Shown piece by piece: positions 38,391 through 63,494 of a DNA stretch of 64,000 nucleotides. The position numbers and the translations under genes were made by a program. The number at the start of each line of letters is the position of its first letter. Position 1 is the stretch's first letter. The DNA is from Nitrosarchaeum sp. (GTDB lineage: Archaea; Thermoproteota; Nitrososphaeria; Nitrososphaerales; Nitrosopumilaceae). The notes beneath the pieces are model-generated. The model had not been told where the DNA came from and ran no database searches. It saw nothing but the letters and a program-made list of their open reading frames with translations. Location of the stretch: contig OZ245020.1 of the NCBI GenBank assembly GCA_965223865.1, forward strand, positions 960,001 through 1,024,000, given 5' to 3'.

Positions 38391-40184
38391 TCACTTTTTG
38401 CCTTGTTCATCTTCCTCTTTTTTTGGGTCCCCAATACCATATTCATCTTCCTCTTTTTTTGGGTCCCCAATACCATATTCATCCAGAATATGTTTGCGCT
38501 CTTCATCGTATTTTGAGATTTCCTCAAATTCTCTTTTTTCATCTCCCTGGTAGATTGTTCTGATTGGCCAGGGAATCCGTATGTCATATTTTTTGAACTC
38601 TTTGTACATCATCATACGCATGTCACTTTCTACTTTGAATTGTGAGCCATAATCTCTGACGTACACCCACATCGCAAAATATAACGATGAATCGTCAAAT
38701 TTTCGAAATCTTACCTTTGGCTGTTCCATATCAACTAGGACGTCCTTGTCACATCCACAGCTTGGCTTGCCTTCCAGAAGATAAGGGCACTGCTCTTGAA
38801 TTATCATGTGGGCGCCATCTGAGTCGATTATCTCTTTCATTGCTCTTTTTCCTATCTTTACTAGTATTGCAGCAACTTGTTCTGGATCATTTAGATATGA
38901 TACGCCAACGTCAATCTCTGCTGGAACAAGCTTGAATGAGGTGGTATAGTTGATGATTTTTGATGTAACAAGTTGCCTTGTTGGAATAATTGCCAATGAC
39001 TCGTTTAGAGCATGTCTGATGTATGTTACACGAGGCGTGATTCGATGAACATACCCATTGTATCCATCCACCTCAATTCTGTCCCCTTCCAGAAATATTC
39101 TGTCTTTTCTGATAAAGACATATGCAAAGTAATTTTCCATTGTATCTTTTAGTGCAAAACCTATTCCGATTGACAAACCTCCAGTGGCAGTAGCTAAAAC
39201 AACAAGATCAACCTGCCACCATGCAACAATTCCAAGAAAGACTGCTACGTTGACAATTATCGGAATCCATTGTCTGAATGATTTTGGTATGTCTTGTACT
39301 CTTTTTTGTGCCCATCCGGGTGGTTGTCCGCCAGGTATGATCGGAGCATAATCTCCAAGTCTTTTTTGTTCAGTCCAAATATCAAAAGGATACACTTCTT
39401 GAGGAGTCACACCTAGTCTTAGTTTGTGTCCTGCAGCGTTGTTTCCTATTGTACAATCCTCAAGATATTTTAGGTATTTTCTTTTTTCAGATTTTTTCCA
39501 TTCCTTTAGAGGATCATCTACTAATTCTTTGTAGCTACCTATGGTAAACCCACGAGTTGTTCTAAACTGCTCAAGACTCTTTTTTCCCTTTTTTGTCTTC
39601 AACAGTTTATGAAATACCTCATCGGACATATTTTTGGGTGAATACTTTGGAGGAATCCATTCAAAAATTTTATGAAAAAAGTCTGGCTTATCGTCTGCAA
39701 ATCCCGTCATCATTTTCCAAGAATCAAAATCAATACGTTCCTGTTTTATCCTGTCGTATTTTGTAATTAGAATCGGAATCAATTGAGATACTGCATAACC
39801 AACTGCAAAAATATTCATTGATGTTAGCAGTTTCGCGAAGATCTCTCGTTGAGTTAGATGATCACTTGCTTGAGCTTCAAGCACTTCGATTCTTTCATCA
39901 AAGAGCTCAAAGATCTGAACATATACATTGACAGCGGTAATGATAGCTATGGCAAAAAATGGCAACATTGCCTTTCTAGTAAATTCTGCTAACTCTGGAT
40001 GAATGTGGCTTATTCTTTTTGAGGTGGCCCATCTTGCAAAACTTCTATGTATTGCAACAATAGAAATTATTCCAATTATGAGAATTACAAGTGCTATCTG
40101 AATCAAAGGTGATGATAATACGAGCTCACTTAGTGTTTGAACTTGGCTTGCATTAATACCGGATACTATTGCTTCTTCTACCAC
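38391..40184 (-). CDS. Mechanosensitive channel (MscS family), enlarged
   Basis: GGLSIGIGFALKDTMENY, GDRIEVDG..G.V..I..R.T, IINYT, VGVSY, F..FDDSSL.F, IRIPWPIR. Confidence 0.85.
   Translation of the reverse strand: MVEEAIVSGINASQVQTLSELVLSSPLIQIALVILIIGIISIVAIHRSFARWATSKRISHIHPELAEFTRKAMLPFFAIAIITAVNVYVQIFELFDERIEVLEAQASDHLTQREIFAKLLTSMNIFAVGYAVSQLIPILITKYDRIKQERIDFDSWKMMTGFADDKPDFFHKIFEWIPPKYSPKNMSDEVFHKLLKTKKGKKSLEQFRTTRGFTIGSYKELVDDPLKEWKKSEKRKYLKYLEDCTIGNNAAGHKLRLGVTPQEVYPFDIWTEQKRLGDYAPIIPGGQPPGWAQKRVQDIPKSFRQWIPIIVNVAVFLGIVAWWQVDLVVLATATGGLSIGIGFALKDTMENYFAYVFIRKDRIFLEGDRIEVDGYNGYVHRITPRVTYIRHALNESLAIIPTRQLVTSKIINYTTSFKLVPAEIDVGVSYLNDPEQVAAILVKIGKRAMKEIIDSDGAHMIIQEQCPYLLEGKPSCGCDKDVLVDMEQPKVRFRKFDDSSLYFAMWVYVRDYGSQFKVESDMRMMMYKEFKKYDIRIPWPIRTIYQGDEKREFEEISKYDEERKHILDEYGIGDPKKEEDEYGIGDPKKEEDEQGKK
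38406..38483. repeat. 36-bp in-frame tandem duplication (DEYGIGDPKKEE x2) at MscS C-terminus
   Basis: Identical units starting at 38406 and 38442, partial third at 38478. Confidence 0.9.
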
Positions 40185-45168: not shown

Positions 45169-46473
45169 TTATAATTTTTCTTTTATTCCTGCATAACGAA
45201 GGAATTTTTTTGGATGCTCTTCTACTAATTTTTTAATTCTTATCCTGTCTGCTTTTGAAATACCTTTTGTGTTTTTCATTATCTCATCGACTAATTCATA
45301 GCTTGTTTGAGCCCCTTTGTATAACCCTAAATGAAATAATACGGGTAGTTTGGATAATTGATCATTTGTTTTTAGGACTACCGCTTCTGGAGACTTTGTA
45401 TTTATTGCTTTTATTTGAAGTGATTTGTCAACTGCAGTTCCAAAAAGATCTGATAATCCAGAGCTGATGCTTTGCTCAAGCTTTGTGTTTTTTTCTTTTT
45501 TTGCAATTGATACTATGCGTTTTATCTTCAGAATGACCTGATTTTCTATTATTCCTTCAAAGTCTAGTGCTGTTAATTCGACTCCAAAACACGTTTGAAA
45601 ATAGTCAATAATGTATGATAAGGCTTCCTTTCTGCATGCTGCCTTTGTTGTTCCAAAAGGGCAGTTATCGCAATTAGTAGTATAGTATCGCGAACCCCTA
45701 TCACCAAAACTGGAAAGAACAATCTTTTCATTTTTTCTTAGTTTTGATATTGTTCTTGAAATCGTAGCCTCATCAATTCTCAGAATGTCCGATATTTCTT
45801 TGGCAGAAAATGATCCTTCATCAATTAATTCAAGAATTTCTTTTTCAATTTCTCCCGGAGATCTTCTAGATGATTCTCCTATTTCGTCTCCAAGATAATG
45901 CCATACTAGTTTGTCATCTAATTCATGATTGATTTTTAATGTTTTTTCATCAAATTCAGCTACAAAACCAGAAGCGATTTCATTTTTTAGTATTTTTCTA
46001 ATGATTTTTGGTATGCTTTTAATTTTAAATTCTTGTAATAATTCAGAAACTTCCTTGACTGTGATTTTGGGTTTTCCTGAACGCCAAAGATAATACAGTG
46101 CCCATCGAACTTTTCTATCATCGCTTCTTTCAATTCTTCTAAGTGTACTGCAAAACTCATCAAGTCTTTCCCATTTCAGATCTGCACATGATGATTCGTC
46201 ATTTTTTATCATTAATGTTTTATCAAGTTTTTTGCAAAAGTCCTCCACCAATTTTTTTTGTTCATATTTTTTTGTAGGAATTGGTCTTTTTGGTTTTACT
46301 AATTTTGTTCTTTTTAGGAATAGTTCAAGTAAAACTCCCTTATCTATGAAATCTTGTTTTCGCAAATCATCAGTCTCAAACTTTAGCGTTTCTAAAAAAT
46401 CAAGATCATTGTTTTGAATTGAAGAAGGTGCAAAGGTTTTAAGTCCAGATAATGACCCTTTTGACAATCCCAT
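45169..46473 (-). CDS. Large winged-helix putative regulator with Cys cluster
   Basis: EILELI..GSFSAKEIS..LRIDEATISRTISKL followed by CDNCPF..AC. Confidence 0.65.
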   Translation of the reverse strand: MGLSKGSLSGLKTFAPSSIQNNDLDFLETLKFETDDLRKQDFIDKGVLLELFLKRTKLVKPKRPIPTKKYEQKKLVEDFCKKLDKTLMIKNDESSCADLKWERLDEFCSTLRRIERSDDRKVRWALYYLWRSGKPKITVKEVSELLQEFKIKSIPKIIRKILKNEIASGFVAEFDEKTLKINHELDDKLVWHYLGDEIGESSRRSPGEIEKEILELIDEGSFSAKEISDILRIDEATISRTISKLRKNEKIVLSSFGDRGSRYYTTNCDNCPFGTTKAACRKEALSYIIDYFQTCFGVELTALDFEGIIENQVILKIKRIVSIAKKEKNTKLEQSISSGLSDLFGTAVDKSLQIKAINTKSPEAVVLKTNDQLSKLPVLFHLGLYKGAQTSYELVDEIMKNTKGISKADRIRIKKLVEEHPKKFLRYAGIKEKL

Positions 46474-48040: not shown

Positions 48041-49381
48041 ATGAAAAAAGAAATAGTCATACTTGGAGGAGGTTTTGCAGGAACCACTTTGCTAAGACAA
48101 CTTCAGTCAAAATTCAAAAACAATTCTGATGTTAACATTAGTCTTGTAGGAGATGATAATTTCTTTTTGTTTACTCCAATGCTGCCCGAGGTAGCATCAG
48201 GAATGCTGCATGCAGGAGACGTATCCACTCCAATCAGATTGTTTTGCAAACACGCACAGTTTTATCATGCCAAGGCAACATCCGTTGATTTTGAGAAAAA
48301 ACAAGTAAACATAGTTAGGATATTTGATGGAAAGAAAATAATTTTGCAGTATGATTATCTGATTTTTACATTAGGAAGTATCGATAATTTTTTTGGAAAT
48401 GAAAATATGAGAAAATACTCTTTTACAATAAAGACACTAGAAGATTCACTAGCCATACGTAATCACGTTATCAGCATGCTTGAGAGTGCAGACAATGAGT
48501 CAAACATAGAACTACAAGACGAACTGTCAAACTTTGTTGTAATAGGTGGTGGTTTTGCAGGAGTTGAGATAGCTTCTGAAATTAATCACCTAGTGCAAGA
48601 TGCATCAAAAACATATTATCCAAACATAGATCGTGCAAAACTCAAAGTAATTTTGATCTCAGCAAGAGATGGAATATTGCCTGAAGTTGGAGATGAACTT
48701 GGAAAGTTTGCACTTGATTCTCTCAGAAATGACGGCATACAAGTCATTACAAATACAAAGGCATCAGATGCAGGAGAAGATTTCGTAATCTTGGATGATA
48801 ATAACAAAACCAAAATCAATTGCGGCACTTTGATTTGGGCAGGCGGTGTAAGGGTAGACCCCTTGGTAGTATCTCTTGATTGTAAACATCATTCATCGGG
48901 AAGAATAATTGTAGATGAATATCTAAGGATAAAGGATCATGAAGATGTCTATGCACTTGGAGATTGTGCTTATATGATTGACAAAAATAAGGGAATTCCA
49001 TATCCTCCTACTGCACAGATTGCAATAAGAGCAGGCAAAATAACTGCAAAAAACATAATCCATCAAATAACAAAAAGCAACAATACAATTCTTGAACCAT
49101 TTTCTTATCACAACAAAGGAATAATGGCAACAATTGGAAAGAGAAACGCTGTTGCATTGATTGGAGGGAAAAAAATTCATGGTGTTTTGGCATGGATTCT
49201 ATGGAGATTCTTTTATCTCTCAAATCTTCCTACAAATGAGAAAAAAGTCAGAGTTGCACTTGAATGGTTCTTAGATGTGTTCTTCAAACATTCAGACATA
49301 TTAACAGTCGGCATAATAAAGCACAAAGAAGTAACAGAAGAGAATTCTAAACATGATCATCATCCAAGTCAACAGTTATGA
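48041..49381 (+). CDS. Type II NADH dehydrogenase-like FAD oxidoreductase
   Basis: ILGGGFAG, FTPMLPEVASG, VIGGGFAGVE, WAGG, ALGDCA, PPTAQ.A, KG.MA.IG, AW..WR. Confidence 0.88.
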   Translation: MKKEIVILGGGFAGTTLLRQLQSKFKNNSDVNISLVGDDNFFLFTPMLPEVASGMLHAGDVSTPIRLFCKHAQFYHAKATSVDFEKKQVNIVRIFDGKKIILQYDYLIFTLGSIDNFFGNENMRKYSFTIKTLEDSLAIRNHVISMLESADNESNIELQDELSNFVVIGGGFAGVEIASEINHLVQDASKTYYPNIDRAKLKVILISARDGILPEVGDELGKFALDSLRNDGIQVITNTKASDAGEDFVILDDNNKTKINCGTLIWAGGVRVDPLVVSLDCKHHSSGRIIVDEYLRIKDHEDVYALGDCAYMIDKNKGIPYPPTAQIAIRAGKITAKNIIHQITKSNNTILEPFSYHNKGIMATIGKRNAVALIGGKKIHGVLAWILWRFFYLSNLPTNEKKVRVALEWFLDVFFKHSDILTVGIIKHKEVTEENSKHDHHPSQQL

Positions 49382-49452: not shown

Positions 49453-49530
49453 ATGAGATGTGTAAATTGTGGAAACCAAGCAAGCTGGCGAGATTCTACT
49501 TGTAACAAATGTGACTTGCAGTCTTTCTGA
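49453..49530 (+). CDS. Zinc-ribbon micro-protein (25 aa)
   Basis: Manual translation MRCVNCGNQASWRDSTCNKCDLQSF*; two CxxC. Confidence 0.45.
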   Translation: MRCVNCGNQASWRDSTCNKCDLQSF

Positions 49531-49612: not shown

Positions 49613-49628
49613 GAGAAATAGTTTAAAT
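49613..49628 (+). promoter_or_regulatory. BRE/TATA promoter of the ligase operon
   Basis: GAGAAATAG-TTTAAAT ending 27 nt before ATG 49655, consistent with a short-leader transcript. Confidence 0.55.
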
Positions 49629-49654: not shown

Positions 49655-51823
49655 ATGAAAGTTGCTTTAATTTACAATGAACGAGAAATCAATCCTGAGG
49701 ACGTAATCAATGTCTTTGGGATGACCACCAAAGAACATTATAGTAAAAAGGCAGTTGAGCGTGTTGCAAGAGCTCTAGAAAAAGGTGGACATACAGTCAA
49801 GGTAGTTGAAGGAGACATTCACTTGGCAGATGAGCTACGTGAGTTTATGCCAAAGGTAGTTGCAGGAGACTCTCCAGGAATGGTATTCAACATGGCATAT
49901 GGAATCCAAGGACAGAATCGTTACACACATGTTCCAGCAATGATGGAGATGTTAGGCATTCCATACATAGGATCAGGACCTGCAGGACACGCTATAGTTC
50001 AAGACAAGGTAATGACAAAAATCATCTTACAGAAAAACAATATTCCAACCCCTGGATTCTGGGTTTTCAAAACTGCAGAAGATACTTTTGATGATTTAAT
50101 ATTTCCTGTGATTGTTAAACCAAAACTAGAATCCACCTCGATGGGCATGGAAGTAGTTGACAACTGGGATGATCTGCGCAAGGCAGTAAAGGTGCAGATT
50201 GAAAAATTTCAACAAGATATTCTAGTAGAACAATTCATTTCGGGAAGAGAGTTTGCAGTAGGTATCCTGGGAAACACCCCCAACATCGACATTCTTCCCA
50301 TAGTTGAAATCAATCTAGATAATCCAGATCAAATTCAGACTATAGAGGATAAAAAGAAAAAAGGAGGGGTTGACAAGACATGTCCGGCAAAATTATCCAA
50401 AGAAAAAACAGAAGAGATGAAACAGATGTGCATAGATGCATTCTCATCTTTGGGACTAAATGATTACAGCAGGGTTGATTTTAGGATGGACAAAGATGAG
50501 AATCTTTACATTCTTGAATTAAATTCAATGGCAAGTCTTGGAATGGGAGGTTCACTATTTTACGCTGCACAAACTGCCGGATACACTTATGAATCTTTGA
50601 TCAACAAAATTCTTGATGTTGCAGTAATGAGATACTTTGGCTCATCACAAAAAATCGCAGAAATAGAGCCAGACATGACACAACCATTACGTGTAGTTGC
50701 AAGGACATACTTGCGAGGACATCTGCAAAGCATTAAAGAAACTCTAAGGGACTTGGTGAATCTCAATACTCATGTATATAATATTGACAACGTAAACAGG
50801 ATGGGCAATATTTTATCTCGCAGGCTAAAGCATTTGGGGTTTAATGAATATATTCACAAACAATTTGAGATCGGAGATTTTCGTTTTTTTAAAAATCATG
50901 ATGAATCAGAAAATGATGTCCTGATTGTATCTCATATTGATACTCACTACGGGCCAAATGACTTGATAAACTATTATGAAGATGGTGATAAAATACTTGG
51001 CTCTGGAATAGCTGAAAGCAAGGGAGGTCTAGTTGTGATGCTAGGTGCATTACATGCACTTCGATTTGCAAAGAAACTCCGTAAGGTAAAATGCGCAGTA
51101 CTGTTAACTACTGATGACAGTCTGGGGGGAAAATTTAGTAAGGATCTAGTGCAGCAATATTCTAAAACATCAAGGTACATCATGGGGTTAAAGTCTGCTA
51201 GTAAGGAGGGGGGAATAATTACAACATGTTATGGACGAAATGACTATCAGATTCGCTTTACTGCTCCTAATATAACATCTGCAGACATTCATGGCATCAT
51301 CCCAGTATTAGGCAAGAAAATCTCAGCAATTGAGAAATTATCAAAAGACGAAAAAGACTATCGCCTCAGAACAACTTCCATTGTTGCTCAAGGTTCTCAT
51401 GGTCACACCCCTAATTATGCAACCCTGTCTTTGGTTTCAAGTTACAAGACGCCCCAACTGGGAGACTCGCTTGATTCAAAAATACGAAATATTATGAAAA
51501 AACGAGAAACAGGTGCTCCAAAACTTGATGTGGCAATTAACAGAGTTCAGACAAGACCGCCAGTAATGGAAGAAGAGTCAGATAAGGCCTTTTATGAGAT
51601 GATAGAAGATTTAGCAAAGAGACATGAGATTAAGATAAAACGACACGAACAAATCATGTCTTCAGATATTAGTAATGTGCCTCCTGAACTTCCAGCACTA
51701 GATGGATTCGGTCCAAAGGGTCACAAGTACCGCTCTCCTCAAGAGTATATCATTCATGACAGTATCGTTGAAAGGGCAGCCCTTCTAACATCTGTTATTT
51801 ACAGATGTTTTGAGAAAAAATGA
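49655..51823 (+). CDS. D-Ala-D-Ala-ligase-like ATP-grasp ligase fused to M20/CPG2-like domain
   Basis: N-half: GIPYIGSG, DKVMTK, IVKP..STSMG, VEQFISGREF, RVDF, LELN; C-half: SHIDT, GSGIAESKGG, DGFGP.G. Confidence 0.85.
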   Translation: MKVALIYNEREINPEDVINVFGMTTKEHYSKKAVERVARALEKGGHTVKVVEGDIHLADELREFMPKVVAGDSPGMVFNMAYGIQGQNRYTHVPAMMEMLGIPYIGSGPAGHAIVQDKVMTKIILQKNNIPTPGFWVFKTAEDTFDDLIFPVIVKPKLESTSMGMEVVDNWDDLRKAVKVQIEKFQQDILVEQFISGREFAVGILGNTPNIDILPIVEINLDNPDQIQTIEDKKKKGGVDKTCPAKLSKEKTEEMKQMCIDAFSSLGLNDYSRVDFRMDKDENLYILELNSMASLGMGGSLFYAAQTAGYTYESLINKILDVAVMRYFGSSQKIAEIEPDMTQPLRVVARTYLRGHLQSIKETLRDLVNLNTHVYNIDNVNRMGNILSRRLKHLGFNEYIHKQFEIGDFRFFKNHDESENDVLIVSHIDTHYGPNDLINYYEDGDKILGSGIAESKGGLVVMLGALHALRFAKKLRKVKCAVLLTTDDSLGGKFSKDLVQQYSKTSRYIMGLKSASKEGGIITTCYGRNDYQIRFTAPNITSADIHGIIPVLGKKISAIEKLSKDEKDYRLRTTSIVAQGSHGHTPNYATLSLVSSYKTPQLGDSLDSKIRNIMKKRETGAPKLDVAINRVQTRPPVMEEESDKAFYEMIEDLAKRHEIKIKRHEQIMSSDISNVPPELPALDGFGPKGHKYRSPQEYIIHDSIVERAALLTSVIYRCFEKK

Positions 51824-53082
51824 GTCTTGAGTATGAGTTAGCAGCATTAGCTGCACTTATCGGATTGTCTGGTTTTTTTAGTGGACTAGAAGTCGCTTTG
51901 GTAGGTACCTCTCAGGCAACCATTGAAAGGCTCGTAAAAGAAAAGGTAAAAGGTGCAAAATCGCTTCAAAAACTAAAATCAAATCCAGGGTGGATGATGT
52001 CCAGTGTAAATCTTGGAAACAATCTTGTAAACATTGGTTCGGCATCTCTGGCTACTGTGATCTCAATTGAGATTTTTGGAGAAAATGGAGTTGGCATTGC
52101 AGTTGGAATAATGACTTTTTTGGTGATCATATTTGGAGAGGTCACTCCAAAGACATACTGTAATGCAAATGCTACAAAAATAGCGTTACGAAGTAGCGGA
52201 ATTTTACTTGCATTCAGCTATGTGTTTTATCCTGCAGTTTGGATTTTAGAAAAAATTACGCGCAGCATCATTAAAGTTACAGGAAGCGATTATCTGCCAC
52301 CTGCATTAACTGAAGAAGAGATCAAAGGGATAATCGAACAGGGACACAAAGACAAGGCCCTTGAGAAAGCTGAGAGAGACTTGGTTCGTGGAGCCCTAGA
52401 ATTTGATGATAGGGCAGTCAGGTCTGTTATGATGCCCAGAACAAAGATGTTCTGCCTGCACGCCAACGCACCATTAATTGATGCAGCAGACGCCATCCAC
52501 AAAAGTGGTCATTCCAGAATTCCAATCTATGGCAAAGACCTTGATGACATAGTTGGCATATTGCATGTACGGGATATACTCATACATCTAAAAGAGGCAG
52601 AGATCCAAAAGAAGAATCTTAGAGAGTTTGTAAGGGATCCAATTTATGTCTCACAGGAAAAGAGAATGAGCGATTTGTTAAAACAGATGCAGGCCAAGAA
52701 CACCCACATGGCAATTGTGGTTGATGAATTTGGAGGAGTCGAGGGATTAGTTACACTTGAGGATCTTATCGAAGAGATAGTCGGAGAGATTCATGATGAA
52801 ACAGATTCAACAAAACCATTGTATGAGAAAGTTGATGCAAACACAATAATCACAAACGGAGATATTGAAATTGACATTATTAATGAAATTTTTAAAACGA
52901 ACATTCAATATGGTGACAATTATTCTACACTAAACGGGTTACTGCATGAAAACTTGCATGATATTCCAGAAGTTGGAGATGTTGTCAAAATTGATCCTCT
53001 TTCAATAAAGGTTGAAAAAGTTTCAAAAAACAGACCTACAGTTATACGCATTGAGAAAATAAAAAAACCTGAACAGACATGA
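51820..53082 (+). CDS. CNNM/CorB-type (DUF21-CBS-CorC) Mg2+ transport protein
   Basis: FFSGLEVA, LGNNLVN, FGEVTPK, VMMPR, GHSRIPIY, VVDEFGG..GLVTLEDLIEEIVGEI; ATGA overlap with the ligase. Confidence 0.92.
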   Translation: MSLEYELAALAALIGLSGFFSGLEVALVGTSQATIERLVKEKVKGAKSLQKLKSNPGWMMSSVNLGNNLVNIGSASLATVISIEIFGENGVGIAVGIMTFLVIIFGEVTPKTYCNANATKIALRSSGILLAFSYVFYPAVWILEKITRSIIKVTGSDYLPPALTEEEIKGIIEQGHKDKALEKAERDLVRGALEFDDRAVRSVMMPRTKMFCLHANAPLIDAADAIHKSGHSRIPIYGKDLDDIVGILHVRDILIHLKEAEIQKKNLREFVRDPIYVSQEKRMSDLLKQMQAKNTHMAIVVDEFGGVEGLVTLEDLIEEIVGEIHDETDSTKPLYEKVDANTIITNGDIEIDIINEIFKTNIQYGDNYSTLNGLLHENLHDIPEVGDVVKIDPLSIKVEKVSKNRPTVIRIEKIKKPEQT

Positions 53083-54728
53083 AAGAGCAGATTGGAATTG
53101 TCGTAAATAGACTTGTAATAGGATTTACTTTTGCATTTGTCTATCAAATAGTAATTGGTGTTGCAACATCTCTGTTGTCATTACCCCTTACTGGAAACAT
53201 ACAAGATTTGATTGCAGGAATAGAACAAATTGAATCCTATCAAGGTTCTTGGTTTATAGCTTGGTGGATTGTCTCTACAATAATAATTACTGCGCTATCT
53301 CTTTTGGTTGTAAAATACAGGAAATACTTTTCTCCTTACAAAGAAGAAAAAAACATAGATCTTCCAACAAGAATTACTGCACTTACGGCCCTTATTGTAG
53401 GTGCAATAATCTCTTTTCTGTTTTTCTTGTTAGATTTGATAATAGGCTCGTTGGTAAAAATAGGTACTGCTACAGACGTACAAGCAATCTATCAAGCTGC
53501 AACTGCAGGTGATTTTACTCCTCTTACAGTAAGCATTGTGTTTTCTATACTTGCAGGATTTATCATAGTTGGGGTAGTCAGCAAAACTTCCAAAGTTTCA
53601 GAGATTACCCGTGAGTTTGGAATAAATGAATTTACGCGGTTTTCTAAAATCATAAGCAAGAAGAAAGAAGATAACAGAACCACAATTGCCGATACCATCG
53701 GACTTAGACCTGGAGAACTTGTACATGTAGGAGAAAGAAAAGTAGACAAGACTCGAATAGACCTTATTGAATTTGATGAAAAAGACATCAATGAAATCAA
53801 GGATGCATCAATTAAGACGTGTTTAGAATCTAAAAGTAAATCCAATATATCATGGATAAACATCATTGGAATACATGATCCTGACATCATCGGAAAGTTT
53901 GGAAATGCGTTTGGCCTACATACTCTACACCAGGCCAACATAATGAATACAGAGTTGAGACCATCCATTGAGATCTCCGATGAATATATTCATCTTATGC
54001 TAAAGATGCCGCACTTTAGCGAGGAAAAAGGAAAAATTGAGCTTGAACACATATCGCTTGTCATAGCACAAGACCATCTTTTGTCGTTTCAGGAGATTGA
54101 GCAAGATTTCTTTGATGGAATTCGAAAGAGACTAAAAGAGAATCTTGGCACCATTAGAAAACGTAAGACCGATTATCTAGCATATGCATTAATTGATGCA
54201 ATTGTTGATAGTTACTTTGTCATCCTTGAAAAAATTGGTGACATAACAGAAAACTTAGAAGATGAACTGATGTCCGATCCTAATCCTAGTACCTTGCAAA
54301 CCCTTCAGCTATTGAAACGACAAATGATTCTGCTTAGAAAATCTGTTTGGCCTGCAAGAGAAGTGATAGACAGTCTGCAACGCAGTCATGCTGTTCTTAT
54401 CTTTGATGAAACAAAGACGTATCTGAGAGACTCATACAATCACATAGTCCAAGTAATAGACACTATTGAAGGATTGCGTGATGTAATTGGTGGAATGGTA
54501 GATACCTATCTTTCCAGCGTAAGCAACAAAATGAATGAGGTGATGAAGACACTTACTGTCATTGCCAGCATATTCATTCCCATAACCTTCATTGCTGGGA
54601 TATATGGTACCAATTTTAGCTATGTTCCAGAATTAGAATGGGAGGGAAGCTATTTTGTCATGCTTGGTGTAATGATCATAATAGTTGCGGTAATGGTGTC
54701 GTGGTTTAAGAAAAAAAATTGGATTTAG
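53079..54728 (+). CDS. corA: CorA Mg2+/Co2+ transporter with extra N-terminal membrane domain
   Basis: GLRPG.LVHVGE, WINIIG, MNEVMKTLT, FIAGIYGTNF, PELEW; ATGA overlap; ~190 aa N-terminal extension. Confidence 0.88.
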   Translation: MKEQIGIVVNRLVIGFTFAFVYQIVIGVATSLLSLPLTGNIQDLIAGIEQIESYQGSWFIAWWIVSTIIITALSLLVVKYRKYFSPYKEEKNIDLPTRITALTALIVGAIISFLFFLLDLIIGSLVKIGTATDVQAIYQAATAGDFTPLTVSIVFSILAGFIIVGVVSKTSKVSEITREFGINEFTRFSKIISKKKEDNRTTIADTIGLRPGELVHVGERKVDKTRIDLIEFDEKDINEIKDASIKTCLESKSKSNISWINIIGIHDPDIIGKFGNAFGLHTLHQANIMNTELRPSIEISDEYIHLMLKMPHFSEEKGKIELEHISLVIAQDHLLSFQEIEQDFFDGIRKRLKENLGTIRKRKTDYLAYALIDAIVDSYFVILEKIGDITENLEDELMSDPNPSTLQTLQLLKRQMILLRKSVWPAREVIDSLQRSHAVLIFDETKTYLRDSYNHIVQVIDTIEGLRDVIGGMVDTYLSSVSNKMNEVMKTLTVIASIFIPITFIAGIYGTNFSYVPELEWEGSYFVMLGVMIIIVAVMVSWFKKKNWI

Positions 54729-54738
54729 TGTTTGATAG

Positions 54739-55530
54739 ATGACCAACAAAGCAATGCAACGTGCATATGAAATTCTTGAAGGCACTACTGATGACAAACT
54801 TGCAAAAGGATTTCAGATTTTTATCATATCCTTGATTGCAATAAATGTTCTATTTGTTATCATTGAAACTGAAGAATCGGTTTTAGATGAGTATGGTTAT
54901 CTTTTTACTCCCTTTGAAGTTTTTTCGGTAATAATTTTCACAACAGAATACATTGGAAGAATAATTGTCTGTAGGTTAAATCCAAAATATGAGAAGAGCA
55001 GATATGCAAGACTCCGATTTGTCTTTACCCCGATGATGTTAGTTGATTTGGCTGCAATATTGCCATTCTTCTTGCCGTTTGTAGTAACAGATCTTAGGTT
55101 CATAAGAATAATCAGACTCTTGAGACTATTCAGGCTGTTTAAGCTTGCCAGATATTCTGATCCGATGCAAACACTTGGCGAGGTATTCAAGGCAAAAGCA
55201 GGAGATCTTTCCATTGCATTTTTTATTCTTTTCATAGTGTTGATCTTTGCATCAAGTTTGATGTATTATGCAGAAAATGAATCTCAGCCAGAGATATTTT
55301 CTAGCATTCCTGCATCAATGTGGTGGGGAATTATCACATTAACTACTATAGGATATGGAGACACATACCCAGTAACAGTGTTAGGCAAGATAGTTGGCGG
55401 GGCAGTAGCCGTTCTTGGCATTGCAGTTTATGCCATTCCTACAGGCATCATGGCATCTGCATTTACTGAAGAATTACGCAAAAAAAGACAAAAGAAACGA
55501 ACATGCCCTCATTGTGGCAAGGAGATCTAA
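54739..55530 (+). CDS. Voltage-gated-type K+ channel (6TM)
   Basis: S4 RFIRIIRLLRLFRLFK, filter TTIGYGD, C-terminal CPHCG. Confidence 0.92.
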   Translation: MTNKAMQRAYEILEGTTDDKLAKGFQIFIISLIAINVLFVIIETEESVLDEYGYLFTPFEVFSVIIFTTEYIGRIIVCRLNPKYEKSRYARLRFVFTPMMLVDLAAILPFFLPFVVTDLRFIRIIRLLRLFRLFKLARYSDPMQTLGEVFKAKAGDLSIAFFILFIVLIFASSLMYYAENESQPEIFSSIPASMWWGIITLTTIGYGDTYPVTVLGKIVGGAVAVLGIAVYAIPTGIMASAFTEELRKKRQKKRTCPHCGKEI

Positions 55531-55535
55531 AAAAA

Positions 55536-57167
55536 TTGGACATAAAAAAGATTGAAAACTCGTTTATCTCAACGTCTGACAAGAAATTTTCTTATGCAAA
55601 ACATGGCATGGTTTCCAGTGCGTTTCCTGATGCAACAAAGGCAGGAATTGAAATACTAAAGAAAGGAGGAAATGCCATAGATGCTGCATGTGCTACATCT
55701 ATTGCATTAGGTGTTTGTGAACCTCAAGCATCGGGCATTGGAGGACAATCCATGGCGATTTTACACATCAAAGGAAAAACAATCGCAATCGACGGGTCTA
55801 GCAGATCGCCTTCTCTTGCACATTCATCTATATTTCAAGGAAAGAGACCAAGATTGTTAGGATACAAGTCCACTACCGTTCCAAGTACTTTGGCTGTTAT
55901 TGGGTATATCCATGAGCGATATGGTGAATTAGAATGGCCAAAAATAATCCAACCAGCCATTAGAATTGCAAAACACGGTTACAAGATAACCAAACTCCAA
56001 CATGACTTGCAGGAAAGAGAGCTTGAAAATTTCTTGAAGATTAAATCAAAGTCAGGAGCAAAGTATTTTCTCAAAGACGGTCAAGTGCCTTATGATGTAG
56101 GAGATAGATTCATTCAAGAAGAGTTGGCAGATACTTTACGAAATATTTCAGAGCACGGATATAGAAGTTTCTATCATGGTCAGATTGCTAAAACAATCCA
56201 CAACGACATGAAAAAGAATAAAGGATTGATAAGAGACGAAGACCTGGCATTCATTCCCGAACCAATTGAAAGAAGACCAATCAGCAGATACTATCGCAGA
56301 ATAAACGTAGTAACCATGCCACCGCCTGCTGCCGGAAGAACCTTGCTTTTAACACTGATGATGCTTAATCATTTACCATCAAAATTTTTGAGAAGTTCAA
56401 AACCTGTTTCTTATCATTTTGTTGCAGAAACATTCAGAAAGGCGTTTTTCCATAGAGTGCAACGACCATTTAATCCTCATACATATCATCAAACTCAAGA
56501 TACGGTGCATTTGGCAAGAAGTTTTGCCAAACAAATGGCCGAATCCATTCACAGTACCATGGATGCTACTTTGCCCATGACTGATCCTGAATTTGGTGGT
56601 GAAGATACAACTCATCTCTCAGTAATGGATGATGAAGGCAACGCAGTAGGAATCACACAGTCAATTGAGTTGGCATATGGTGCAAAAACTGCTGCAGATG
56701 GATTGGGATTCCTTTACAATAATTACATGTCCGCATTTGAGTATACTAATCCTAACCATCCTTTTTTTATCAGGCCCAATGCCATTCCTTGGACGTCGGT
56801 TTCACCTGCATTTGTATTCTATGGGGGCAAGTTATGGATGGTAGTAGGCAGTCCTGGAAGCCAAAGAATATTTTCAGCTATAAGTCACTTTATCTCTAGA
56901 ATGGTTGACGGAGAACTACCAATGAGTGAAGCAATTCAGAGACCAAGGTTTCATTGCTCAATTGGAGGAACAGTAAGCTATGAGGATGAAGGATTTGATG
57001 ATAAAACATTGGACTATCTTACAGGAATAGGATATACTATTTCCAAGAAGGAGAGATGGTCGTTTTATCATGGGGCAATTCATGCAGTATTAAAATGTCA
57101 AACCAGAGAGGGATTTCAGGGTGTTGCAGAAGTAAGACGTGATGGAACAGCAGAGGGATTAAATTAA
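55536..57167 (+). CDS. ggt: Gamma-glutamyltransferase (cytoplasmic)
   Basis: GGNAIDAA, EPQASGIGG, PPPAAG, nucleophile DTTHLSV, LYNNYM, GSPG, RPRFH; likely TTG start at 55536 after GGAG; no signal peptide. Confidence 0.9.
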   Translation: MDIKKIENSFISTSDKKFSYAKHGMVSSAFPDATKAGIEILKKGGNAIDAACATSIALGVCEPQASGIGGQSMAILHIKGKTIAIDGSSRSPSLAHSSIFQGKRPRLLGYKSTTVPSTLAVIGYIHERYGELEWPKIIQPAIRIAKHGYKITKLQHDLQERELENFLKIKSKSGAKYFLKDGQVPYDVGDRFIQEELADTLRNISEHGYRSFYHGQIAKTIHNDMKKNKGLIRDEDLAFIPEPIERRPISRYYRRINVVTMPPPAAGRTLLLTLMMLNHLPSKFLRSSKPVSYHFVAETFRKAFFHRVQRPFNPHTYHQTQDTVHLARSFAKQMAESIHSTMDATLPMTDPEFGGEDTTHLSVMDDEGNAVGITQSIELAYGAKTAADGLGFLYNNYMSAFEYTNPNHPFFIRPNAIPWTSVSPAFVFYGGKLWMVVGSPGSQRIFSAISHFISRMVDGELPMSEAIQRPRFHCSIGGTVSYEDEGFDDKTLDYLTGIGYTISKKERWSFYHGAIHAVLKCQTREGFQGVAEVRRDGTAEGLN

Positions 57168-57193
57168 AAAACACATCACAACCACTGCCTATT

Positions 57194-57961
57194 TTGTTAT
57201 CCATTCCACATGGAGGAACACAAAAACCATCAGAGCTTGACGGACATTTGTGTATCGCTGACAGAGACATGTTTGATGATTCAGATCCATTTGTAATTGA
57301 GATTTATGATCTAGGGGAAAAAGTGCAACAGGTGATTAAGACAGACATTGCAAGGGCCTTCGTTGATCTTAACCGCTCTTTGCAAGATCTTCCACCAAAA
57401 AATCCTGATGGATTGATAAAAAGCACAACTTGCTATCAAAAACCCATTTACATAAAAGGAAAGGAACCCGATGAGGTATTAACTAATACTCTAATAGAAA
57501 TGTATTACAAACCATATCATAAGAAAATTCAGAAAAGTATTCATGAACTGGATTTGCAACTTTGTTTGGATTGCCATTCTATGGCATCGATTGCACCTAA
57601 CATTTCCCCAGACGGGAACAGTAAAAAAAGACCCATGTTTTGTCTTTCAAATCAAGATGGTAAAACATCATCAAATGAAATGATCAATATTTTAGCTGAA
57701 TGCATCTCTGAATCTTTTTCTGTTAGCAGAAATGAAATCGCTCTAAATGATCCGTTTCATGGAGGATACATCACAAAAACCTACGGCAACAACCCAATTC
57801 CATGGATCCAGATTGAGATGAATAGAGATCTATATTTATCAAAAGAGTGGTTTGACTATGAAACTCTAAGCGTTGACAATAAGAGATTAACTGCTTTAAA
57901 CCTCATGTTCAAAGATACGCTAGGTAAATTTTACAACAAATGCTTCAATGGCGAAGACTAA
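57194..57961 (+). CDS. N-formylglutamate amidohydrolase family protein
   Basis: SIPHGG, DSDP, ARAFVDLNR, YYKPYH, LDCHSM, NDPFHGGYIT, IQIEMNR.LY. Confidence 0.9.
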   Translation: MLSIPHGGTQKPSELDGHLCIADRDMFDDSDPFVIEIYDLGEKVQQVIKTDIARAFVDLNRSLQDLPPKNPDGLIKSTTCYQKPIYIKGKEPDEVLTNTLIEMYYKPYHKKIQKSIHELDLQLCLDCHSMASIAPNISPDGNSKKRPMFCLSNQDGKTSSNEMINILAECISESFSVSRNEIALNDPFHGGYITKTYGNNPIPWIQIEMNRDLYLSKEWFDYETLSVDNKRLTALNLMFKDTLGKFYNKCFNGED

Positions 57962-58210: not shown

Positions 58211-59206
58211 TTATCCTCTATCAGTTTCTCCAGCAATGTCTCCTACAATCTCCTCTAAAAGATCTTCAACAGTTATAATTCCTTGTAGTTGTTCATCTTC
58301 ATCTAAAACAATTGCTACATGACTAACATTTTTTTTAAGGTCTACTAGCAACTCACTGATCTTTTCATTTGAAAAAACAAAAAATGGTTTTCTGGCAATC
58401 TTGCCTATCTTAGTTCTCTTGTATTCTTTTTCGGCAAGTCTAGCAATGTCCCATATGTGTAAGACTCCTACAATGTTTTCAGAAGTGTTTGAAAAAACAG
58501 GGATTCTAGAGAATCTCTTTTCTTTTATCTGTGGGAAAACCTCAGATAACAGGCTCTCAGCATTCAGCGAAAAAATATTCTTTTTTGGAGTCATTACATC
58601 AATGATTGGTTTGTCGTCAAATTCGAGTGCCTTGTGCACTAGATCATGCTCTTCACGTTCTATGGCCTTCTCAGATAATCCTAAATCTACTACCTCTTTG
58701 ATATCTTCCTCTGTAATTGGTTTTGGGGATGCAGTTCCTCCAACTAATTTTAAAAATGCTTTTGTCAAATACTCCAAAAACAAAACAAATGGATACATCA
58801 CATAAGTAAATGCAAGAAGAAAACTGCTAAAATACAAGGCTACTCTTTCAGACTGAATGTTAGAGTATGTCTTGGGCAAAATCTCGCCAAACACCAATAT
58901 TACAAAAGTCATTATTCCAATGGCAATTCCAACACCCTGATTGCCTAGCAGTTTAATGGCAACATCAGCTGCCAACACAGAAGAAGCTACATTGACCAAT
59001 GTGTTTCCTAAATTTACACTTGAGGTCATACGGCTTGGGTTTGTCTTTAGTTTGTATAGTGCAGACGCGCCTCTGATTTTTTTACGATACAATCTCATGA
59101 CTTTGGAACGTCTTGTACCAACGATAGCAATTTCAAGTCCGCTAAAAAGTGCATATAATCCAATAAGAATCAATATTGCAATGATCTCAATCTCCACATA
59201 TTCCAA
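58211..59206 (-). CDS. Second CNNM (DUF21-CBS) protein, lacking CorC domain
   Basis: FSGLEIA, LGNTLVN, FGEILPK, FSRIPVF, GIITVEDLLEEIVGDI. Confidence 0.9.
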   Translation of the reverse strand: MEYVEIEIIAILILIGLYALFSGLEIAIVGTRRSKVMRLYRKKIRGASALYKLKTNPSRMTSSVNLGNTLVNVASSVLAADVAIKLLGNQGVGIAIGIMTFVILVFGEILPKTYSNIQSERVALYFSSFLLAFTYVMYPFVLFLEYLTKAFLKLVGGTASPKPITEEDIKEVVDLGLSEKAIEREEHDLVHKALEFDDKPIIDVMTPKKNIFSLNAESLLSEVFPQIKEKRFSRIPVFSNTSENIVGVLHIWDIARLAEKEYKRTKIGKIARKPFFVFSNEKISELLVDLKKNVSHVAIVLDEDEQLQGIITVEDLLEEIVGDIAGETDRG

Positions 59207-61286: not shown

Positions 61287-62621
61287 ATGATAGTAAGATC
61301 CTTTGAGTATACTATTCCTCAAATCACATATCTAGTCAAGAAAAAACTATGGGCTCAGGTTCTTGTTGGTTTATTCTTTGGTTTGATTTTAGGAATAGTT
61401 CTTGGTCCAGAAGCAAATTTAGTTCCTAGAGAATCGGTTCAGGTGCTCACAGAGTGGTTATCAATACCTGCCAATCTATTTCTTAAAATAATACAAATGA
61501 TTATTGTTCCTCTTATCTTTGCATCAATAATCCGTGGACTCACATCTACAGGAAATATGGAGCAGCTAAGATCAATTGGTATTGGAACTACCATGTATTT
61601 TATAATCACCACCATAATTGCCATGGCAATTGGGATTCTAGTTGCAACTGCAATCATGCCAGGAAATTTTATTGACAGTTCTCTGATATTCGAAAGTTTT
61701 GGAATTGAAGAGACTGAAAATATGGTAGAACAAACTGAGTTTGGTCTAAGCGATATCCCCCAAGGTATTGTTGGTTTTATTCCTAGCAACCCCTTAGAAT
61801 CAATGCTTTCAGGTGAGATGTTAAGCATAATCGTTTTTGCCCTATTTGTAGGAGTGGCATTGATATCATTACCAAAGAAAAGCTCTGAGCCAATACTTGA
61901 CTTGTTGGATGGTGTTCAGAAAATCACTATGAAAGTTGTTTCATGGGCAATGCGTTTGGCCCCCTTTGCGGCTTTTGGATTAATGGCAGACATTACATCA
62001 AAACTTGGCGTATCTGCACTTGTGGGACTCGGAGTCTACATGGTGACTGTGGTAATTGGACTCTTTGCAGTATTGGTTGTCTATATAATCATAATCAAGT
62101 TTTTTACCAAAAGGCCTCTTGCCTCGACGTTGGGAATGCTCAAGGATCCTATGCTTCTTGGTTTTTCAACATCAAGCTCTGCTGCAGTAATGCCAGTATC
62201 CATCAAAACGGCTGAGGAGAAATTAAAAGTAAAACCCGAAGTTTCCCAGTTTGTAATTCCTTTGGGGGCAACAATCAATATGAATGGAACTGCCTTGTAT
62301 CAAATAGTTGCAGTGTTTTTCCTGGCACAGCTTTTCAATATTGACCTTGGAATAACCACCATACTTTTGATTGCATTGACTGCCCTTGCTGCATCAATAG
62401 GAGCACCTTCTGCCCCGGGAACTGGAATTGTGATACTTTCATCCATACTTGTTACTGCAGGAGTTCCAGCAGTTGGCATTGTTCTTATTCTTGGAGTAGA
62501 TAGAATTTTAGATATGACCAGAACTATGATCAATGTTACTGGCGATCTTACGGCTTGCCTCTTCTTTGATAAAAGGACAAAAGTAGAGAATGCTACATCT
62601 AAGGATCAGAAACATCAGTAA
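61287..62621 (+). CDS. Dicarboxylate/amino acid:cation symporter (GltP/GltPh family)
   Basis: MIIVPLIF, FSTSSSAA, PLGATINMNGT, GVDRILDMTRT..NV.GD. Confidence 0.92.
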   Translation: MIVRSFEYTIPQITYLVKKKLWAQVLVGLFFGLILGIVLGPEANLVPRESVQVLTEWLSIPANLFLKIIQMIIVPLIFASIIRGLTSTGNMEQLRSIGIGTTMYFIITTIIAMAIGILVATAIMPGNFIDSSLIFESFGIEETENMVEQTEFGLSDIPQGIVGFIPSNPLESMLSGEMLSIIVFALFVGVALISLPKKSSEPILDLLDGVQKITMKVVSWAMRLAPFAAFGLMADITSKLGVSALVGLGVYMVTVVIGLFAVLVVYIIIIKFFTKRPLASTLGMLKDPMLLGFSTSSSAAVMPVSIKTAEEKLKVKPEVSQFVIPLGATINMNGTALYQIVAVFFLAQLFNIDLGITTILLIALTALAASIGAPSAPGTGIVILSSILVTAGVPAVGIVLILGVDRILDMTRTMINVTGDLTACLFFDKRTKVENATSKDQKHQ

Positions 62622-62693: not shown

Positions 62694-63494
62694 TTATTCT
62701 TTTAGCTTACTCTCTTTGAATATGTCGGAGCCATACCAACAGTATCTGAAATAGTCAAGGCACCACTCATGAAACATTTGATCATCTCCATGGAGCATTT
62801 CAGTAATGTCTGCTTCTCCATTAGTTGTAGGAAACATTATACATGCTTCTTTTTCATTGATTACCAAGACCGTTTGAATACTTTTGACCATTTTTCTTTC
62901 AACTAATCCTTTTTCAATTAGTTTGTCAAACCCAAGTTTTTTCAACAATGCTTTTCTACCTTTTGGCACCACGATATTCTCTGCAAAAATATACTGAAAC
63001 CTAATTCCTTTTTTAACGCGCTTAATCAAAGGCTCAATCAAGTCCAATGGAACCTCTGATAATATTTCGTAGATATACTCATCAGCATTTCTGTAAATTG
63101 TCTTCCACTGTTCAAGGATTTTAGATACTCCCTTGATGTGTTTTCCAGAGGCAAGCTGTCCTGCTCGCATAATAAACTTGGTTGGAAGATCTCCAAACGT
63201 ATGATCTTCAAAGTAGGTTCTATTCTGAGATAAAAACACAAGTGAAGGAACTTGAGTACACATTGTTTTTCCAAAGGTAGTTAATGCATATTTTCCATCC
63301 TTGTCTTTTTCAATCATTCCACTTTCCTCTAAACGAATAAAATTTCTGTGAACTTCTTGTTTTGTGACCCCGATCTCTCTTGCAAGAAATGTTGCTGTAG
63401 TTCTTTTCTGCAATAATTTGAATAAAATCTCTAATCTTTGAGAGCTTGTAAGCTCCAAAAAGTTTTCAGATGCTTTATCGTACAAGTCACTCAT
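62694..63494 (-). CDS. ArsR-type wHTH transcriptional regulator with C-terminal DUF1724-like domain
   Basis: LTSSQRLEIL..L, EVHRNF.RL, YALTTFG, FHEWCLDYFRYCW. Confidence 0.8.
   Translation of the reverse strand: MSDLYDKASENFLELTSSQRLEILFKLLQKRTTATFLAREIGVTKQEVHRNFIRLEESGMIEKDKDGKYALTTFGKTMCTQVPSLVFLSQNRTYFEDHTFGDLPTKFIMRAGQLASGKHIKGVSKILEQWKTIYRNADEYIYEILSEVPLDLIEPLIKRVKKGIRFQYIFAENIVVPKGRKALLKKLGFDKLIEKGLVERKMVKSIQTVLVINEKEACIMFPTTNGEADITEMLHGDDQMFHEWCLDYFRYCWYGSDIFKESKLKE

Follow-up and report, generated by a model that had tools for sequence, protein, structure and literature searches.

We describe here a run of six genes at 49655..57961 of a 64,000-nucleotide (nt) stretch of contig OZ245020.1 (GCA_965223865.1), hereafter the window, from a genome of the Nitrosopumilaceae. 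The run is headed by LigM20, a fusion of an ATP-grasp ligase resembling D-alanine–D-alanine ligase (Ddl) with a domain of the M20 peptidase family. Its conserved core is a cassette of three genes rather than six: LigM20, a hydrolase of the gamma-glutamyltransferase (GGT) family and an amidohydrolase of the N-formylglutamate amidohydrolase (FGase) family. Judged by its gene order, the stretch would be an operon of two modules, this conserved cassette and an accessory cation-transport block made of CNNM, a long CorA and a voltage-gated K+ channel (Kv). The finding is more aptly regarded as an enzyme cassette of wide distribution that received a transporter insertion in one lineage. With a probability that we place just short of even, the cassette makes and turns over a glutamate-type amide or oligomer with a part in osmotic and cation homeostasis.

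Organisation of the six-gene run

The assembly carrying the window measures 2.01 Mb and is 99.98% complete. A listing of open reading frames (ORFs) returned six co-directional genes on the + strand, filling 49655..57961 exactly. The junctions along the run are, in order, a 4-nt overlap, a second 4-nt overlap, a 10-nt gap, a 28-nt overlap and a 26-nt gap. An earlier interpretation of this DNA (the sequence-only reading) had placed six tightly joined genes behind one TATA box, and in this it was accurate.

49622..49628, + strand: TTTAAAT, a putative TATA box about 30 nt before the ligase ATG at 49655
49655..51823, + strand: LigM20, Ddl-like ATP-grasp and M20 fusion, 722 aa; Dala_Dala_lig_C and Peptidase_M20 (Pfam)
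51820..53082, + strand: CNNM/CorC-type transporter, 420 aa; CNNM, two CBS and CorC_HlyC domains (Pfam), below cut-offs in NCBIfam
53079..54728, + strand: long CorA-family channel, 549 aa; CorA, E 5e-63 (Pfam)
54739..55530, + strand: voltage-gated K+ channel (Kv), 263 aa; Ion_trans and Ion_trans_2 (Pfam)
55503..57167, + strand: cytoplasmic GGT-family Ntn hydrolase, 554 aa; G_glu_transpept, E 1e-113 (Pfam)
57194..57961, + strand: FGase-family amidohydrolase, 255 aa, TTG start; FGase, E 5e-45 (Pfam)

Comparable A/T boxes precede the ligase orthologue in four other loci (L014, L018, L023 and L024; G and L numbers are our labels for genomes and loci).

Distribution of the cassette

Sixty-one related genomes were searched, counting the window's own, and 37 of them belong to the window's family. 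The full-length ligase fusion is found in 10 of these 37 genomes, and orthologous GGT and FGase each occur in the same 9 of those 10, so that the family tally comes to 9 genomes with all three genes and 27 with none. The single ligase-only genome is 72% complete and its locus stops at a contig edge. In every relative with enough contig, the three genes lie together. They are directly adjacent with no transporter in G011, adjacent and followed by CNNM and CorA in G005, arranged in the full six-gene order in G004, G006 and L024, and in the same order minus CNNM in G032, G001 and G034. Given this recurring order in relatives, the six-gene arrangement is more than chance.

Among 1.84 billion representative proteins searched, 504 matched at E <= 1e-30, with full-length fusions recovered down to ~30% identity, and a pattern scan confirmed at least 576 LigM20 loci, taking one genome per species. 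The locus statistics given here cover 80 of these loci. Ligase, GGT and FGase, directly adjacent and in that order, form the common arrangement among the 80. This adjacent cassette was seen under 11 phylum labels, quoted as given in the records of the metagenome-assembled genomes: Nitrososphaerota, Methanobacteriota (ANME-2c type), Binatota, Gemmatimonadota, Fibrobacterota, Nitrospinota, Pseudomonadota, Actinomycetota, Chloroflexota, Acidobacteriota and Ignavibacteriota. It is carried by the principal nitrifiers of the sea (Nitrosopumilus, Nitrospina, Nitrosomonas) as well as by anaerobic methane oxidisers. Species in which LigM20 was found include N. piranensis, N. ureiphilus, N. zosterae, Draconibacterium aestuarii and Propionigenium maris. 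Within 5 kb on either side of LigM20, GGT is present in 45/80 loci and FGase in 40/80, with FGase coming after GGT in 40/80; many of the loci lacking a GGT or FGase match are cut by contig ends. Where at least 10 kb are available on both sides (34 loci), an enzyme partner lies at 0-5 kb in 29 and at 5-10 kb in 3. The sequence-only reading had suggested a search for ligase-M20, GGT and FGase together in other genomes; the three are adjacent under 11 phylum labels, and within the family their presence and absence match exactly.

The maximum-likelihood tree of 75 ligases groups the Nitrosopumilaceae in one clade of 22 rows (SH-aLRT, a likelihood-ratio branch support, of 100). Two subclades of the Nitrosopumilaceae carry the bare cassette, and transporters between or beside the genes are confined to the window's own subclade (11 rows). 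Because only the window's subclade has these transporters, the CNNM–CorA–Kv block is a derived insertion into an older three-gene cassette.

LigM20, a ligase fused to an inactivated peptidase

In databases, LigM20 is annotated only as 'D-alanine--D-alanine ligase' or 'M20 family metallo-hydrolase'. Its domains are Dala_Dala_lig_C (E 1e-33) in a ligase part of approximately residues 1-335 and Peptidase_M20 (E 2e-10) at approximately 358-722 (Pfam). The best matches in the PDB are Ddl for the N-terminal half (~residues 25-330) and carboxypeptidase G2 (CPG2) for the C-terminal half (~residues 360-647, E 3e-17).

The ATP-grasp catalytic and Mg-binding residues (Lys, Arg-x-Asp, Glu-x-Asn) align to those of Ddl and are invariant in 8/8 orthologues, and the ligase domain looks active. 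At the position of the Ddl omega-loop Tyr, LigM20 has a Lys or a variable residue, and the loop differs among orthologues; the N-terminal region is unlike Ddl, and the N-terminal Ddl substrate-binding motif is missing. We take the omega-loop Lys-Tyr and the N-terminal motif to be the substrate-binding elements of Ddl. The Ddl family models also stay under their cut-offs (NF002378, 171.2 against 243 bits; TIGR01205, 153.3 against 245.65 bits). By these sequence features the ligase of LigM20 is not a Ddl, and the view of the sequence-only reading that D-Ala-D-Ala synthesis is unlikely gains support from both the model scores and the replaced Tyr.

Alignment of the M20 site to that of CPG2 (1cg2) places Glu at the bridging Asp and Asp followed by Ser, Phe or His at the Glu-Glu pair formed by the catalytic residue and the next ligand. 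The third ligand Glu is replaced by Lys in 8/8 orthologues, and the last His is retained in 5/8. Among 16 distant fused homologues the first His is gone in most, and the Asp beside it shows no variation. At the level of the fold, the motifs SHxDT and GxGxxxxKGG can still be made out. These positions were read from the 1cg2 alignment, and their roles in a CPG2-type M20, five metal ligands (His, Asp, Glu, Glu, His) and a general-base Glu, are those we assume. Because most of the metal ligands and the catalytic Glu are lost, the M20 domain is a pseudo-peptidase, its fold conserved and presumably used for binding or as a scaffold, and the active CPG2-type M20 once proposed for this protein has to be given up.

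The nearest ATP-grasp paralogues, with 42-46% identity to the ligase domain, are P0162, P0169, P0172 and P0186, all fused to an RloB-type seven-transmembrane (7TM) module (PF14402, NF052267). Other ATP-grasp paralogues were seen in different fusions: P0217 is joined to a nucleoside-transporter-like domain and P0164, of 1646 aa, carries a dockerin. Upstream of LigM20 at L083:6338-9418, a methyltransferase fused to a second Ddl-like ATP-grasp domain is followed by an MscS gene.

The GGT-like and FGase-like hydrolases

The window GGT scores 360.9 bits with TIGR00066, against a cut-off of 357.85. Its N-terminus has no hydrophobic segment and hence, judged by eye, no signal peptide, which agrees with the signal-less GGT of the sequence-only reading. 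The Thr nucleophile is kept: the TTH motif is found in 42/42 GGTs adjoining LigM20 and aligns to the T391A position of 2e0w (E. coli GGT). A rearranged locus of the Nitrosopumilaceae (L029:5824-13847) holds three GGT paralogues around the ligase, together with FGase and two CNNM genes.

The FGase is distant from the enzyme of histidine utilisation, scoring 100.3 bits with the HutG model TIGR02017 against a cut-off of 278.75, and it matches the solved relative 2q7s weakly. A role of the FGase in histidine catabolism is set aside because the window's genome, 99.98% complete, yielded no urocanase; this supports the earlier remark that hut genes do not explain it. Membership in the poly-gamma-glutamate hydrolase (PghP) family was considered and dropped, as a relaxed Pfam scan gave no such match. 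In Propionigenium, the neighbours of the ligase include an M42 glutamyl aminopeptidase and an FGase–GNAT fusion, the latter on the opposite strand (L086:7568-8863).

The transport block and recurrent channel neighbours

Within the window's subclade the block varies. CNNM occupies the same position as in the window in G004, G006, G014 and L024 and is absent there in G032, G001 and G034. Of the genome's two CorA genes, the window holds the second, whose product scores 280.3 bits with TIGR00383 (cut-off 200.75) and has its CorA domain at residues 257-545 (Pfam). Ahead of this domain lies an extension of 235 aa with four hydrophobic helices, which no Pfam family matched in a relaxed scan. The Kv protein has a TIGYGD filter, an S4 helix with Arg at every third position and an Ion_trans domain (Pfam, E 3e-33), bearing out its earlier identification as a Kv channel. 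It adjoins a match to the long-CorA N-terminal extension in 8/8 genomes that have Kv.

Within 5 kb of the ligase, MscS is found in 20/80 loci, CorA in 9/80, MgtE in 6/80, CNNM in 3/80 and Kv in 3/80, at least one of the five in 29/80. On the ligase tree, the loci with channels are spread over distinct clades (Nitrosopumilus, Nitrospinota, Binatota, Gemmatimonadota, Ignavibacteriota, Bacteroidota, Methanosarcinales, Chlorobiota and Nitrosomonas), and the positions and copy numbers of the channels vary between those clades. Three unrelated families of Mg2+ transporters (CorA, MgtE and CNNM) occur beside the same ligase. As an internal control, the 34 loci flanked by 10 kb or more on each side gave 41 channel matches in 17 loci at 0-5 kb and 7 matches in 3 loci at 5-10 kb; matches were called by tblastn, and some genes were possibly counted twice. 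Five genomes picked because their loci had shown MscS have just 4, 4, 5, 8 and 7 MscS genes; at least four of these genomes carry an MscS gene, or several, within a few kb of LigM20. Channels have repeatedly been recruited next to the cassette, independently in distant lineages.

The wider neighbourhood in the window

Other features of the window lie around the six-gene run.

58211..59206, - strand: second CNNM, a convergent neighbour without CorC_HlyC domain (Pfam)
61287..62621, + strand: GltP/DctA-type sodium:dicarboxylate symporter (Pfam SDF, E 6e-115)
62694..63494, - strand: TrmB-like regulator, recurring beside the cassette in L019, L026 and L030 (Nitrosopumilaceae)
45169..46473, - strand: 434-aa protein with weak winged helix-turn-helix (HTH) profile matches
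38391..40184, - strand: nearest MscS-family gene, ~9.5 kb upstream
48041..49381, just upstream of the ligase: NDH2/CoA-disulfide-reductase-like flavoprotein (profile matches)

The second CNNM and the symporter were found where the sequence-only reading had put them; its mention of MscS 'in the same region' is right as to presence and generous as to distance. A CNNM2-like gene also follows FGase in G005, and an association of the second CNNM with the cassette is possible. Homologues of the symporter occur near the cassette in L014, L016 and L046, all Nitrosopumilaceae; because all loci with the symporter are kin, this recurrence is weak evidence. A homologue of the 434-aa HTH-like protein adjoins the cassette in L014, L026 and L046, and both this protein and the TrmB-like protein are candidate regulators of putative function. 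An ORF of 25 codons with two CxxC pairs (~49453-49530), between the flavoprotein gene and the ligase promoter, is probably due to chance and was dropped, because a three-frame regex search found no counterpart upstream of the ligase in 11 relatives.

Rfam matches at the gathering threshold in 14 bacterial and archaeal loci comprised tRNAs and a group II intron, as well as c-di-GMP-I and purine riboswitches elsewhere in L086. In G+C content the cassette (0.35-0.40; window positions 51000-57000) slightly exceeds the upstream flank at 44-48 kb (0.28-0.33), which fits a patchy, island-like distribution.

A proposed role in glutamate-type solute turnover

The chemistry and the physiological role of the cassette are ones that we infer; that its product is of glutamate type we take from the partner families and the neighbours. 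In the proposed mechanism, the ligase would spend ATP on closing an amide bond within a small compound of glutamate type; candidate products are a dipeptide, a short gamma- or beta-linked oligo-glutamate or an N-acyl-glutamate. The dead M20 domain could act in binding or as a scaffold, perhaps holding a C-terminal glutamate, and the GGT-like and FGase-like hydrolases would degrade the ligase product. The cell would thereby be able to alter quickly the size or the charge of its organic anion pool. Adjacent channels may carry the counter-ions, K+ and a divalent cation, and in other phyla MscS channels would vent the solute. That MscS, CorA, MgtE, CNNM and K+ channels turn up beside the cassette again and again suggests an undescribed route by which organic anions, osmotic pressure or cations are kept in balance. 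The RloB-type 7TM module of the nearest ATP-grasp paralogues also speaks for such a role, the rlo operon of Pseudomonas aeruginosa being needed for hypo-osmotic tolerance and its peptidase cutting poly-glutamate (PMC11957051).

Heal et al. 2021 (PMC8269262) report ~730 mM beta-glutamate in N. maritimus, and on that report an anionic glutamate-type pool needing counter-ions is real in this genus. The cassette is a candidate for how marine archaea handle this dominant solute and may bear on beta-glutamate biology. More specifically, and in a version that we hold to be unlikely, the cassette would be the missing enzymology around beta-glutamate, either making it or polymerising or derivatising it into a short beta/gamma-linked oligo-glutamate that acts as an osmotic and cation capacitor. 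If so, ligation would lower osmolarity without loosening the charge from K+ or divalent cations, and the GGT-like and FGase-like enzymes would set monomers free at once by hydrolysis. No protein named for N. maritimus appeared among the best 120 of 1285 and the best 120 of 1560 homologues. In the window's genome, a radical-SAM gene that adjoins an MscS-family gene (G000:C1:412612-415111) gave the best, though weak, match to glutamate 2,3-aminomutase (Eam), and 6/10 cassette genomes searched have KamA-family matches of 215-519 bits and of ambiguous identity. Beta-glutamate made by Eam was considered as a general link to the cassette and kept as a lead only, as the match rises above cut-off in 1/10 of these genomes.

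A number of observations weigh against the proposed role in glutamate-type turnover, and they begin with the enzymes. In 41 of the 42 GGTs by LigM20, DGSSR stands for DxRE, SIE for TxN, NNYM for NN[EQ]MD[DN]F and GSPGS for GSPGG; the sole canonical GGT, with the classical residues kept, is an additional GGT gene of L051, lying upstream of the ligase. By our assumption from the E. coli enzyme, the replaced residues hold the gamma-glutamyl donor by its free alpha-amino and alpha-carboxyl groups, and the GG is the oxyanion pair. With its donor residues altered, the cassette GGT probably takes a different or N-blocked acyl group; its substrate may be other than an ordinary gamma-glutamyl compound, and the altered pocket warns against assuming an ordinary gamma-glutamyl bond. 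As the M20 domain is dead, one of the three 'glutamyl amidases' of the sequence-only reading drops out. Its premise that GGT, FGase and M20 all act on glutamyl amides, which it had taken as given, is not established, the M20 being dead and the GGT donor residues replaced. The best match to Eam in the window's genome reaches 80.7 bits against a cut-off of 650, so that this enzyme was not found there, and the same holds above cut-off for all but one of the 10 cassette genomes searched.

The transporters raise further objections. In the window's subclade, 9/9 CorAs checked have a YGTNF pore motif in place of YGMNF, the canonical form being kept in the CorAs of L016 and L033 and in five bacterial cassette-linked CorAs. 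Taking the GMN pore-loop motif to be the Mg2+ channel signature of CorA, the GTN makes Mg2+ selectivity uncertain; the window CorA may be selective for something other than Mg2+, and the Mg2+ transport that had been assumed here becomes doubtful. The long CorA and Kv also occur as a pair without the cassette in two 99%-complete genomes of the family (G021:C125:1731-4164 and G023:C149:239-2616), and because the pair is found in genomes where ligase, GGT and FGase were not found, it looks like a separate movable module. In 51/80 loci none of the channel families lies within 5 kb, and G011 and most clade-B loci of the Nitrosopumilaceae have the bare cassette. The idea of a coupling to cation transporters therefore stands in part: a channel link recurs in distant lineages, but the transporters of the window are an insertion in one Nitrosopumilus subclade, and the 51 loci have no channel of these families within 5 kb.

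On the side of regulation and ecology, no riboswitch was found upstream of LigM20 in the 14 loci scanned with Rfam. With 27/37 family genomes lacking it, the cassette is dispensable for life in seawater. The counts given above overstate the number of independent events, because kindred genomes do not count as separate cases. Taken as a whole, the observation behind the sequence-only reading is confirmed, and its interpretation in terms of a glutamyl compound is partly supported.

Alternative explanations

Pfam scanning of 83 neighbour ORFs from 16 loci in which no GGT–FGase pair was detected after the ligase revealed, in 7 of the 16, a gene of ~193 aa immediately upstream of LigM20 that belongs to the class-I glutamine amidotransferase or C26-like enzymes. 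Class-I amidotransferases occur in 14/80 loci and never together with GGT. These 14 loci sit inside one major clade of the ligase tree with GGT-type cassettes at its base, and the amidotransferase in place of GGT and FGase is a non-homologous replacement. A gene similar to glutamate-2,3-aminomutase (563.7 bits, cut-off 650) adjoins the ligase in 3/80 loci, two of Ignavibacteriaceae and one of Methanosarcinales, and an intact stand-alone M20 gene is also present in two of the three.

A glutamine-dependent amidation, which we consider decidedly unlikely, would make use of these partners. The ligase would activate a carboxylate, for example that of glutamate or beta-glutamate, and the amidotransferase, or GGT acting as a glutaminase, would give the ammonia, yielding a neutral amide such as beta-glutamine. 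The ~193-aa partner scores best with models of GMP-synthase subunit A (GuaA) and of the TrpG type (E 1e-28 to 1e-32), closer than with Peptidase_C26 (E ~1e-7); this result also counts against glutamate-type turnover, and together with the mutual exclusion of GGT and the adjacent Eam-like genes it argues for amidation. Carbamoyl-phosphate synthetase likewise pairs an ATP-grasp enzyme with a class-I amidotransferase subunit, and beta-glutamine is a known methanogen solute. However, the ligase has the two-substrate architecture of Ddl, the FGase of 40/80 loci is left without a role, and the GGT-type cassettes are the majority and stand at the base of the amidotransferase-type clade; we know of no ammonia-channelling role for GGT.

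Reversible tailing of a protein or peptide in the manner of RimK/RimB seems very unlikely. LigM20 would add glutamate-type residues to a C-terminus held by the dead M20 domain, and the hydrolases would trim them. The CPG2-like domain would suit a C-terminal glutamate, and the RloB-type 7TM module of the nearest paralogues points the same way, as do the RimK/RimB and RloABC systems, which combine ATP-grasp enzymes with peptidases acting on poly-glutamate tails or peptides according to the preprint PMC11957051. Against this, the recurrent neighbours include no conserved candidate substrate gene, the small CxxC ORF upstream in the window was not found in 11 relatives, and the ligase is closest to the dipeptide-forming Ddl. 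Relatives of GGT and FGase, moreover, act on small molecules.

A salvage route, in which external gamma-glutamyl or N-acyl amino-acid compounds are broken down for nitrogen and the transporters lie nearby by chance or through shared regulation, is highly improbable. It would account for two hydrolases, for the GltP-type symporter and for a patchy distribution such as accessory nutrient genes often have. Yet the most conserved member of the cassette is an ATP-consuming ligase, which a purely degradative route leaves unexplained, the GGT has no signal peptide, channel enrichment drops sharply with distance, and no peptide or amino-acid uptake system is found among the recurrent neighbours.

A glutathione-like thiol peptide is scarcely credible: the synthetase domain of GshF-type enzymes is Ddl-like, GGT is the classical glutathione hydrolase that could recycle the product, and the flavoprotein at 48041-49381 would fit, but there is no glutamate-cysteine ligase among the recurrent neighbours, the GGT donor pocket is altered, the channel neighbours go unexplained and the upstream flavoprotein is not recurrent in other loci.

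Each of these alternatives explains less of the data than the making and turnover of a glutamate-type amide or oligomer.

Comparison with known systems

A full-text literature search, which did not reach the 2009 amidoligase survey by Iyer and colleagues, found no description of the ligase–GGT–FGase cassette. Its components are nonetheless related to well-studied enzymes. Ddl is the best sequence and PDB match of LigM20, which conserves its ATP- and Mg-binding residues; LigM20 differs in scoring below the family cut-offs, in missing the omega-loop Tyr and the N-terminal motif and in being fused to an M20-like domain, and its thaumarchaeal host lacks peptidoglycan. With CPG2-type M20 enzymes, the C-terminal half shares fold-level motifs without the metal site. 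The dead M20 domain fused to a ligase and the GGT with a rebuilt donor pocket are two clear cases of enzyme domains turned to new use.

The RimK/RimB and RloABC systems offer a closer parallel. For P. aeruginosa, a preprint (PMC11957051) describes rlo as encoding an ATP-grasp protein, a peptidase that cleaves poly-glutamate and a 7TM protein whose transglutaminase is inactive, the operon being needed for hypo-osmotic tolerance. The cassette shares with these systems the combination of an ATP-grasp ligase with hydrolases and the link to osmotic stress, and with RloABC an inactivated peptidase-like domain (transglutaminase in RloB, M20 in LigM20). The cassette ligase, in contrast, is Ddl-like rather than RimK-like, its hydrolases belong to the GGT and FGase families rather than to the retropepsins, and all cassette parts are predicted to be cytoplasmic.

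The enzymes of poly-gamma-glutamate turnover resemble the LigM20 partner families at the superfamily level only. Relatives of GGT, of the FGase fold and of the class-I amidotransferase/C26 enzymes cut gamma-linked glutamate chains (CapD, GGT, the PghP fold and C26 gamma-glutamyl hydrolase). The cassette differs in having no PgsB-type synthase and no Pfam match of its FGase to PghP.

Compatible-solute clusters, such as those for ectoine and N-acetylglutaminylglutamine amide (NAGGN), are similar in that genes for making a solute go together with one for a release channel. N. maritimus reportedly has an ectoine cluster with an MscS gene, in work ascribed to Widderich and colleagues in 2016, and in NAGGN synthesis by Ngg/AsnO an ATP-grasp enzyme makes a glutamine dipeptide. 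The enzyme families are different, however, and in the LigM20 cassette hydrolases belong to the core. The survey by Iyer and colleagues is said to have defined a class of metabolite systems pairing an ATP-grasp ligase with peptidases, and the cassette described here shares with that class a conserved neighbourhood of amidoligase and hydrolase genes.

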